From positions 327,532-391,531 of the forward strand of contig JBHLKM010000002.1 of assembly GCA_048886685.1 (NCBI GenBank): a stretch of 64,000 nucleotides of DNA, written 5' to 3'. The DNA comes from Candidatus Hodarchaeota archaeon (GTDB lineage Archaea > Asgardarchaeota > Lokiarchaeia > Sigyniarchaeales > SOKP01). A program made the position numbers and the translations under genes. The notes below the pieces were generated by a model. The model ran no database searches and was not told the DNA's origin. It saw only the letters and a list, made by a program, of their open reading frames with translations. Within the stretch, counting starts at the first letter, position 1. Each line of letters opens with the position of its first letter. Positions 34,476 through 36,032 of the stretch are shown piece by piece.

Positions 34476-34628
34476 TTATAGCTTGATTTCAATATTTATT
34501 GTTTCAATATTTTCAGGAACTGCTTTGGTGGATTTCAGGTAACCCAGAATTATGTTTGTTAGCATTTCTTGCATGAAATCCTTTAAAGGGATCTGTTTTT
34601 CATTAACTGTAAGTATTGCTTTTAACAT
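34476..34628 (-). CDS. 50-aa protein resembling the C-terminal extension of MobB-FeS fusion proteins
   Basis: MLKAILTVNEKQIPLKDFMQEMLTNIILGYLKSTKAVPENIETINIEIKL*; below the ORF-track cutoff. Confidence 0.65.
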   Translation of the reverse strand: MLKAILTVNEKQIPLKDFMQEMLTNIILGYLKSTKAVPENIETINIEIKL

Positions 34629-34714
34629 AATTATCCCTAAACATACTGATTTTTTAAAATTTTACCTAATAATAAATAGTAATTTTATAAAAAACACCGA
34701 AACCTTTGCTAGGT

Positions 34715-34756
34715 TTGTCCTCTTACAACCATCATTTTCTTGTAAAAGTCATCCAA
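34715..34756 (-). promoter_or_regulatory. Eukaryote/Lokiarchaeota-type SECIS element (K-turn)
   Basis: RNA UUG-GAU-GA-CUUUUACAA-GAAAAUGAUGG-UUGUAAGAG-GA-CAA: AUGA/GA core, 9-bp helix (8 WC + 1 GU), AAAA in loop; in the 3' UTR of the UGA-containing ORF. Confidence 0.75.
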
Positions 34757-34770
34757 CTCGCTTTTTAATT

Positions 34771-34998
34771 TTACAATAAAAGCCCAACATTTATTTGTGC
34801 TATATAATTTCTCAATAGTTCTAATAATGGAAGATTTATAATTGCACAAACTCAACCACCACCATTACTAGTTTCGTTTTGTAAAGTAAAGATTAAAATT
34901 ATTGTGATTGCTGTTGCTATAGCGACTATTCCTAATATCAGCATAAGTATCCTATTGGACTTTCTTTTTCCTAAATCTTGTATTTCAGAATCTATCAT
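34771..34998 (-). CDS. Candidate small single-pass membrane selenoprotein (75 aa, Sec49)
   Basis: MIDSEIQDLGKRKSNRILMLILGIVAIATAITIILIFTLQNETSNGGG-U(TGA 34854-34852)-VCAIINLPLLELLRNYIAQINVGLLL*; SECIS-like hairpin downstream. Confidence 0.7.
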
Positions 34999-35135: not shown

Positions 35136-36032
35136 ATGAAATTATTACGTACTCCAGATGAAAGATTCGAAAATATTCCTGATTTTCCATATGAGCCACA
35201 TTATTTAGAAGTTGACGAGATTCGAATACATTACTTAGACGAGGGTCCCAAAGACGCAGAAGTTATCTTACTCATGCATGGTGAACCCTCATGGAGCTTT
35301 TTATATAGGCATATGATTCCAATTCTAGTGAAAGCTGGATTTAGAACTGTTGCCCCAGATTTAGTAGGTTTTGGACGTTCCGATAAACCAACAGAAAAGG
35401 AAGACCATACTTATGCAAAACACGTAGAATGGATGACAAAATTGGTTAAATCGCTTGACCTTAAAAGAATAACCCTTTTTTGTCAAGATTGGGGATCTCT
35501 GATAGGTTTAAGAGTCGCTATTGAGAATCAAGATCGATTTAGTCGAATAGTGTTATCAAATGGAGGATTACCCACTGGTGAACAATCTATGACAGAAGCA
35601 TTTTTGACCTGGAGGAAATTTTCTAGAGAAATTCCTACCTTTCCTGTTGGACGATTAATTCAAGCTGGAACAACAACTAAACTATCAAGAGAAGTGAGAA
35701 ACGCTTATGATGCCCCATTTCCTGATGACACATATAAAGCAGGCGCACGAATATTACCTTCTTTAGTACCAATTAGTACTGATGATCCAGAACATAAAGC
35801 GAACAAGAAAGCATTCGAAGAATTTGGAAAGTGGGAAAAACCATTCCTAACAGCCTTTTCTGATAGTGATCCTGTAACTCGTGGTGGGGATAGATTCTGG
35901 CAACAATATATTCCTGGTGCTCAAGGACAAAAACATACAACAATTAAGGATGCAGCGCATTTTGTCCAAGAAGATAAAGGTCCAGAATTAGCAAATCTAA
36001 TAATTGAGTTTATAAAGGATAATCCTTTATAA
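35136..36032 (+). CDS. Haloalkane dehalogenase (DhmA/HLD-I type)
   Basis: LRTPDERF, HGEPSWS, QDWG nucleophile elbow, AYDAPFP, HFVQED. Confidence 0.92.
   Translation: MKLLRTPDERFENIPDFPYEPHYLEVDEIRIHYLDEGPKDAEVILLMHGEPSWSFLYRHMIPILVKAGFRTVAPDLVGFGRSDKPTEKEDHTYAKHVEWMTKLVKSLDLKRITLFCQDWGSLIGLRVAIENQDRFSRIVLSNGGLPTGEQSMTEAFLTWRKFSREIPTFPVGRLIQAGTTTKLSREVRNAYDAPFPDDTYKAGARILPSLVPISTDDPEHKANKKAFEEFGKWEKPFLTAFSDSDPVTRGGDRFWQQYIPGAQGQKHTTIKDAAHFVQEDKGPELANLIIEFIKDNPL

Follow-up and report, generated by a model that had tools for sequence, protein, structure and literature searches.

Seven selenoprotein families have been described from Asgard archaea (Huang et al. 2024, PMC11227280). For archaea as a whole, a review of May 2026 arrives at eleven families, none of them membrane-bound, and a SECIS-first search reported no additional family (Mariotti et al. 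2016, PMC4989117). All of the published archaeal families consist of enzymes, or subunits of enzymes, that are soluble and have Cys homologues. For the Asgard genes HdrA-VhuD, VhuU and PrxL, decoding of UGA as Sec depends on lokiSECIS, i.e., Asgard type I eSECIS-like elements (PMC4989117, PMC11227280), the published features of which are an AUGA, a 9-bp stem, an 11-nt loop with an A-rich start and a final G, a GA (rarely AA) and a location in the 3' UTR. Beyond the archaea, the closest layouts are those of the eukaryotic ER-membrane proteins SelK and SelS, in which the Sec lies on the cytosolic side and the C-terminus is of the GGUG type; cycling through a diselenide or an outside thiol has been reported for both in vitro.

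The locus described here comes from Candidatus Hodarchaeota archaeon (GCA_048886685.1, contig JBHLKM010000002.1, positions 327,532 to 391,531); this whole stretch of 64,000 nt is referred to below as the window. On its minus strand lies a gene that very likely encodes a genuine Sec-decoded membrane protein of a new, unannotated family in a Loki-type Asgard archaeon, a conclusion resting on comparative evidence, without 75Se, MS or ribosome profiling data. Compared with the lokiSECIS-served genes, the decoding system is the same: the hairpin behind the gene meets every published lokiSECIS feature listed above, and its distance from the UGA (~100 nt) is similar to that in VhuU of the same genome (84 nt). 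The protein itself, in contrast, is unrelated to the known products of such genes, being tiny, membrane-anchored and without Cys homologues, with a Sec that is predicted to be extracytoplasmic.

An ordinary ORF listing of the window gives the gene as two halves only, split at the UGA; its full extent is given in Table 1. The product opens with M-I-D-S-E-I-Q-D-L-G, followed by KRKSNR, the codons flanking the Sec read GGT GGT GGT TGA GTT TGT, and the C-terminal tryptic peptide of the post-UGA tail is NYIAQINVGLLL. From UGA through SECIS, the whole forms a compact unit of ~190 nt. The original prediction, made from sequence alone, had claimed a TGA-split ORF with this anatomy, and it held on reading of the sequence, the strand being minus: the KRKSNR stretch, the GGG-U-V-C motif, the 26 sense codons after the TGA and the TAA end were all as claimed. 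Other parts held less exactly; i.e., the TM helix, put at ~21 residues, is of 23, the AUGA, put at 100 nt from the UGA, starts 102 nt past the first UGA base (and 21 nt past the TAA stop), and the amphipathic helix claimed after the TGA was found as a moderately hydrophobic helix in a low-confidence AF2 model.

Table 1. Positions, within the window, of the selenoprotein gene, its SECIS element and the adjacent small ORF
Feature	Position	Strand	Basis or remark
Start codon ATG	34998-34996	minus	
Selenoprotein CDS, 75 codons including the putative UGA-Sec49, plus TAA	34771..34998	minus	TGA=U translation; end-to-end orthologue alignment
Basic stretch KRKSNR, predicted cytoplasmic, residues 11-16, immediately ahead of the TM helix	34951..34968	minus	
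Single TM helix, residues 17-39 (23 aa)	34882..34950	minus	Sequence; AF2 helix 3-42, pLDDT 74-84 here
Polar Gly-rich linker QNETSNGGG, residues 40-48, predicted extramembrane	34855..34881	minus	Gly-rich run ahead of Sec in nearly all members
UGA codon 49, very likely read as Sec	34852..34854	minus	In-frame TGA kept at the same alignment column
Cys51 codon TGT, proposed partner of Sec49 (U-V-C)	34846..34848	minus	Cys spacing in 49 members; L056/L025 exchange
Post-UGA tail, residues 50-75 (26 sense codons after the UGA as counted), moderately hydrophobic helix	34774..34851	minus	AF2, pN/pS, hydropathy
Stop TAA	34773-34771	minus	
SECIS, full match to family model R1, 82.4 bits	34681..34766 (= G000:C2:362212-362297)	minus	Covariance model search
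Outer helix, 5' strand	34757..34764	minus	Pairs with 34701-34694 region
AUGA, 5' half of kink-turn core	34749..34752	minus	19 aligned elements: U, G and A invariant; first base A in 18/19, G in 1
9-bp upper helix, 34748-34740 with 34728-34720	34720..34748	minus	Compensatory changes in 7/9 pairs; 94% of cells paired
11-nt apical loop GAAAAUGAUGG	34739-34729	minus	Three invariant loop A's
GA, 3' half of kink-turn core	34718..34719	minus	Invariant in 19/19 aligned elements
Small 3' hairpin ACC-UAGCAAA-GGU between core and outer helix	34702..34714	minus	Sequence kept, 91% of cells paired, zero covariation: pairing unproven
Outer helix, 3' strand	34694..34701	minus	Pairs with 34764-34757; compensatory changes in 6/8 pairs across species
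Run of five T immediately 3' of SECIS, possible archaeal transcription stop	34689..34693	minus	Inferred from the sequence
Conserved 50-aa ORF, downstream; possible partner of unknown function	34476..34628	minus	Follows the selenoprotein gene in every g1 locus with enough sequence

The SECIS element and Sec decoding in the genome

The consensus element consists, in order, of an outer helix (CCGAA/UUCGG), UGGA, AUGA, the 9-bp helix, the 11-nt loop, GA, a mini-hairpin (ACC, 7-8 nt, GGU) and the return strand. In the window the strands of the 9-bp upper helix are CUUUUACAA and UUGUAAGAG, and the apical loop opens with GAAAA (consensus AAAAA); the loop ends in G in 18 of the 19 aligned elements. 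Pairing in the outer helix of the window's own SECIS is less complete than in the consensus. It is covariation, and not the folding of a single sequence, that supports this structure. RNAalifold recovers both long helices unaided, with compensatory changes in 13 of the 17 pairs; 91.8% of cells pair in the specified structure, as opposed to 37-50% after a shift of the 3' partners by 1-3 columns; and none of 500 shuffled controls matched the observed values on any of five measures. Folded singly, the 3' UTR is not significant by itself (z = -0.97). An Rfam scan of the region returned no SECIS family and only chance matches (E >= 0.3), as is to be expected because standard SECIS models miss lokiSECIS (Mariotti et al. 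2016, PMC4989117).

Placement of the element is kept across the family. Inspection by eye together with a script placed a SECIS downstream of the gene in 19 of the first 25 loci. The covariance model R1, built from 19 elements of the small-membrane-protein family alone, matched immediately 3' of the gene, at 36-90 bits, in 33 of another 36 family loci, distant genera included. Members from family f6 carry a weaker version in the correct placement. The UGA-to-AUGA spacing ranges from 47 to 125 nt (median 97).

Two features of these elements stand as observations in their own right. First, the mini-hairpin (ACC/GGU or CCC/GGG) is kept in all SECIS elements of the family as well as in the HdrA-VhuD SECIS of the window's genome; it would make a three-armed fold that is absent from the published lokiSECIS description of a 9-bp stem and 11-nt loop, but its three pairs never covary and the pairing remains unproven. 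Second, certain members from genus g28 (L079, L080, L082, L087) have a UGA-to-SECIS spacing of just 56-60 nt, and in some g28 members the UGA within the AUGA core of the SECIS is the stop codon of the gene, an arrangement already published for vhuD.

Applied to the whole 4.4-Mb genome, R1 returned seven sites at 39-82 bits, the next best scoring 17 bits. The six sites other than that of the window gene are found at the 3' ends of HdrA-VhuD (three sites), HdrA, VhuU (a VhuU-type hydrogenase C-terminus, D-C-U-L-S-C) and one further UGA-containing ORF; scores at the HdrA-VhuD, HdrA and VhuU ends were 39-60 bits, against a background of 17 bits or less. A model built from the new family alone thus finds the SECIS elements of known selenoprotein genes, and the hairpin is therefore of the organism's working SECIS type.

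The means to use such an element are encoded in the genome. Components detected include a tRNA-Sec (63 bits, above the Rfam cut-off), an adjoining SepSecS (388 bits), a full-length PSTK-like gene (136 bits, below the strict cut-off), a SelB-like GTPase ~4 kb from the tRNA-Sec (237 bits vs a bacterial cut-off of 242) and two tandem SelD genes with one TGA each. In the mechanism that we propose, UGA49 would be read as Sec under the direction of the 3'-UTR lokiSECIS 102 nt on, the same type of signal as for HdrA-VhuD and VhuU; on comparative grounds, we regard this step as very likely.

General reassignment of TGA was considered separately. Among frames of at least 250 codons in this genome, TGA closes 14% and TAA 71%; TGA is therefore an ordinary stop here, and reassignment is ruled out.

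Side observations were also made elsewhere in the genome. SepSecS, tRNA-Sec and the SelB-like GTPase form a Sec gene cluster within ~7 kb (G000:C1:219573-226340). Outside the window, the further UGA-containing ORF picked up by R1 (L039, G000:C14:111660-112239) is 167 aa long, contains two adjacent in-frame TGAs (...H-A-D-U-U-A-D-V...), is directly followed by an R1 SECIS match of 40 bits and adjoins an ACR3-like membrane carrier; it may be a second unlisted selenoprotein.

Conservation of the gene and of the reading frame beyond the UGA

When 60 relatives were searched in six frames for the read-through protein, ~25 same-genus matches were obtained, each with exactly one in-frame TGA. A profile from 22 members was then run over all 159 sampled genomes of class Promethearchaeia (Lokiarchaeia), by which the family was found in 44 of 51 genomes of genus g1, 32 of 42 of g28, 4 of 7 of g29, 2 of 10 of g27 and all 3 of family f6. 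In all, members occur in ~90 related genomes of this class, almost always with one in-frame TGA at the homologous position; no TGA-bearing member was found outside the class among the 398 sampled Asgard phylum genomes searched. The members share one architecture, i.e., a basic N-terminus (consensus E-L-R-K-x-K-I-K-K), one TM, a Gly-rich run, U, usually G/A/P-C, and a variable tail, with a linker of 8-12 residues. These counts have to be read with the limit that MAG relatives are non-independent samples and that all of the evidence is comparative.

Under the least favorable of the rival explanations, the gene would be a chance ORF or an assembly artefact. It is indeed very short, the genome is AT-rich and the TM segment is of low complexity; however, the same architecture and the same signal recur in dozens of independently assembled MAGs from several studies, and this explanation is all but excluded.

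In protein databases the family is present without being recognized. A search of 5.8 billion clusters returned 16 proteins and an exhaustive HMM search of 1.84 billion representatives returned 41, these being either fragments of 39-62 residues cut at the UGA ("hypothetical protein, Promethearchaeota") or full-length table-4 calls with W. Across 22 members, Pfam and NCBIfam gave no consistent family, nor any match to the domains of known Asgard selenoprotein families (SelD, FrhA/VhuU, HdrA, FrhD/VhuD, Prx-like, AhpF-N-like and DsbA-like). A full-text literature search with "selenoprotein" and "Promethearchae" returned nothing, and the small-membrane-protein family is absent from the published selenoprotein surveys searched, to May 2026.

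No Cys homologue at the primary Sec position was found in the 5.8 billion clusters or the 1.84 billion representatives. Without one, the classic Sec/Cys test cannot be applied at the primary Sec; that criterion is supportive, not obligatory. The entries P0002, P0005 and P0068-P0071 were considered as Cys homologues and ruled out, each being a table-4 call with W at the UGA.

Several lines of evidence bear on whether translation continues past the UGA. Beyond the UGA, no stop interrupts the frame for at least 16 codons in 40 of 49 distinct members, vs 24% of random genomic TGAs, and for at least 26 codons in 26 of the 49, vs 12%. Pooled over six close orthologue pairs, pN/pS of the tail is 0.43, with differences concentrated at third positions; between the window gene and its nearest orthologue it is 0.40. 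A Cys lies within 2-4 residues of the Sec, on either side, in ~88% of members: the spacing is U-x-C in 35 of the 49, C-G-U in 6 and U-x-x(-x)-C (+3/+4) in 2, with none in the remaining 6 (L013 also contains U-P-S-A-C and was left out of the +3/+4 tally). One member, L056 (G098:C124, minus strand), has two Sec codons, its U-P-C-U-I-G-Y-F aligning with U-T-S-C-I-G-Y-F of its closest relative, L025, such that the second UGA falls at the partner-Cys site while the conserved tail continues beyond; we infer from the sequences that this pair represents a Sec/Cys exchange at the partner site. Taken together, the open tails, the pN/pS values, the Cys spacing and the second UGA of L056 are hard to square with termination at the first UGA.

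The tail itself varies. Most members have a hydrophobic tail of 16-33 residues past the Sec, several others have 7-11, and 4 of the 49 have only 1-2; the tail is only moderately constrained, and much of it may therefore be dispensable.

An alternative to Sec decoding is that the UGA is a true stop. The product would then be a membrane peptide of 48 residues with Gly-Gly-Gly at its end, and the hairpin would act in some other way, e.g., as a terminator, as a K-turn bound by L7Ae or in regulating the downstream ORF. In its favor, (i) databases annotate exactly such a product, of 39-54 aa, (ii) a few paralogues (L180, L181) lack Sec and terminate at a TAA after a run of Gly, and (iii) four members have only 1-2 codons past the UGA. 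However, this reading leaves unexplained why TGA is kept in ~90 species when TAA closes 71% of long frames, as well as the downstream Gly/Ala/Pro-Cys and an open frame with pN/pS below 1. It also does not account for a hairpin type that is, as argued above, otherwise found only behind known selenoprotein genes of the genome, nor for the short-tail members, which still keep their SECIS 74-95 nt past the UGA. We consider termination at the UGA very unlikely.

Against this record, the further claims of the original prediction fared as follows. A SECIS-like K-turn hairpin 3' of the gene had been claimed, and it held through covariation, the lokiSECIS features and the family covariance model. The checks that had been proposed alongside came out favorably: (i) the codon homologous to codon 49 is TGA in orthologues, (ii) a coding signal is present past the TGA (open frames and the pooled pN/pS), (iii) TGA-containing orthologues have a SECIS, and (iv) the genome has Sec machinery (tRNA-Sec, SepSecS, a PSTK-like and a SelB-like gene, and Sec-SelD). 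That the selenoprotein was previously undescribed is supported by the lack of a match to any known selenoprotein or other curated family. The proposed UxC redox motif is still an inference, with ~12% of members having no nearby Cys.

Divergent relatives of the gene were also encountered. A paralogue in one genome that has the normal form as well (L091, G023:C63:87700-89000) keeps the basic N-terminus and the TM; its linker, however, is charged and its Sec motif is C-K-R-U, with an R1 SECIS (53 bits) 102 nt past the UGA. Genus g28 contains a paralogue without Sec or Cys (L180, L181) that ends ...GGGGGGGTIFG and then TAA, and at least one genome (G119) has both this Sec-less type and the TGA form. 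In other Asgard classes, L177 and L178 (family f13) and L179 (family f18) share the N-terminal motif D-P-E-L-K-K-K-R-K and the TM, after which Cys-rich C-x3-C repeats replace the Gly-Sec segment; these may be distant Cys-based relatives, a kinship resting on the N-terminal half only.

Predicted topology and putative function at the membrane

Across the 49 members, the 12 residues ahead of the TM contain 4.47 K+R on average, vs 0.10 after it; given this bias, the N-terminus is predicted to lie inside and the Gly loop, Sec and tail outside. AF2, run on the family alignment, gave a helix at residues 3-42, a loop at 43-50 and a second helix at 51-74, with modest confidence overall (pLDDT 66) and low confidence in the tail helix. 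The hydropathy of the tail is intermediate, and in most members it is too short or too polar for a membrane span; it is therefore read, by inference, as an interfacial helix that would hold the Sec close to the membrane surface. Topology and function, like the role of the tail, are predictions, made without expression or selenium data.

In the proposed mechanism, the product would insert as a single membrane-spanning helix, the basic N-terminus remaining in the cytoplasm, which would place the Gly-rich loop, Sec49-Val-Cys51 and the hydrophobic tail helix at the outer membrane face; both steps are inferred from sequence alone. Sec49 would then present a reactive selenol at the membrane surface, cycling with Cys51 through a selenenylsulfide, while Cys-less members may instead use an intermolecular diselenide or an outside thiol. 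Targets of such a selenol, by reduction or exchange, would be oxidants, disulfides or soft metal(loid)s, located either outside the cytoplasm or in the membrane. Since 6 of the 49 members have no nearby Cys, among them the closest relative of the window gene (with U-P-G), a Sec-Cys couple cannot be the universal mechanism. A redox function for Sec49 by way of a selenenylsulfide cycle at the membrane surface is an inference drawn from the sequence, and on balance we would stop just short of favoring it.

The main functional rival keeps the selenoprotein and assigns it another job, in which the selenol, with or without Cys, would serve as a soft metal or metalloid ligand (Hg, As, Cu, Ni) or as a Se/S carrier at the membrane. 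In support of such a role, members without any Cys exist, the C-x3-C tails in other Asgard classes look more metal-binding, one member has a weak match (E 0.11) to Pfam FeoB_associated, a Cys-rich membrane protein, and another SECIS-served ORF of the genome adjoins an ACR3-like arsenite carrier. FeoB_associated-type proteins and L177-L179 also resemble the new family in having one TM followed by a short Gly/Cys-rich segment, and L177-L179 have the basic N-terminus and TM in common with it; unlike the selenoprotein family, however, these proteins have many Cys, no Sec and no SECIS. Against a ligand or carrier role, the conserved neighbours of the family in g1 and g28 include no metal transporter and no resistance gene, and both the fixed two-residue spacing of the Cys from the Sec, on either side, and the L056 swap also fit a redox couple. 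This alternative remains possible.

For the redox reading, too, gene neighbourhoods offer no help: no redox gene is a conserved neighbour in g1 or g28, and neither the 50-aa ORF that follows the gene in g1 nor the FGGY kinase and TrmB regulator found on either side of it in g28 gives a redox or other functional clue. The 50-aa ORF has relatives that are 68-92% identical and confined to Asgard archaea (Promethearchaeota, Hermodarchaeota), and its AF2 model, a beta-hairpin plus helix, is confident (pLDDT 87.6); no match to it was found in Pfam, a PDB sequence search, Atlas or Foldseek. It is more widespread than the selenoprotein; in sister genera the two genes are not linked, and in g28 the ORF is found on contigs other than that of the selenoprotein gene. 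A functional pairing of the two is a possible lead and no more.

A two-component system comprising the selenoprotein and this ORF is not claimed, since the distributions do not track each other outside g1.

On the other side of the selenoprotein gene, a divergently transcribed alpha/beta hydrolase (window positions 35136-36032, plus strand) is 57-64% identical to proteins of Woeseiaceae, other Gammaproteobacteria and many other bacteria, beside Asgard orthologues, a pattern that may reflect gene transfer between domains. Among its relatives are genes of MAGs classed as Promethearchaeia or Promethearchaeota.

The layout of the protein also raises the possibility of an archaeal homologue or forerunner of SelK/SelS. 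Like SelK and SelS, the proteins are small and cross the membrane once, have a flexible segment rich in Gly and could form a selenenylsulfide or diselenide; in short-tail members the Sec is also near the C-terminus. The hosts are Asgard archaea, and short-tail members end ...G-U-G or ...G-U-P-G, recalling the GGUG-type C-termini of SelS and SelK. However, (i) searches with 22 members gave no hit to Pfam SelK_SelG or Selenoprotein_S, even with E allowed up to 10, and no sequence similarity was found, (ii) the charge bias predicts a Sec outside the cell, opposite to that of SelK/SelS, (iii) the linker is of 8-12 residues, not ~50, and most members have a tail of 16-33 residues past the Sec, and (iv) the family is confined to one class, with no TGA members elsewhere among the 398 Asgard genomes. 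Homology is thus very unlikely.

Membership in the SelK/SelS families proper is ruled out by the absent profile match, and the cytosolic placement of the Sec would, by prediction, also be unmet.

A bolder reading would see in these proteins a Sec-obligate family without a Cys version anywhere, the first membrane-anchored and the first extracytoplasmic archaeal selenoprotein: a "selenol on a stalk" at the outer face, possibly a diselenide dimer, that would be a functional analogue, and conceivably an ancestor in kind, of SelK/SelS. We consider this reading unlikely in its full extent.

Returning to the reading that we do prefer, that of a Sec-decoded membrane protein, the new family would differ from the published archaeal ones in being very small, membrane-bound and Sec-only. 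It would have escaped notice because homology pipelines depend on a relative with Cys or Sec, while gene callers end the frame at the UGA; ~100 genome annotations consequently carry a truncated "hypothetical protein" that is to be extended. With its UGA and SECIS so close together, the gene offers a natural test case for lokiSECIS. Ultimately, the family raises the question of what role a lone selenol may play at the anaerobic Asgard cell surface.
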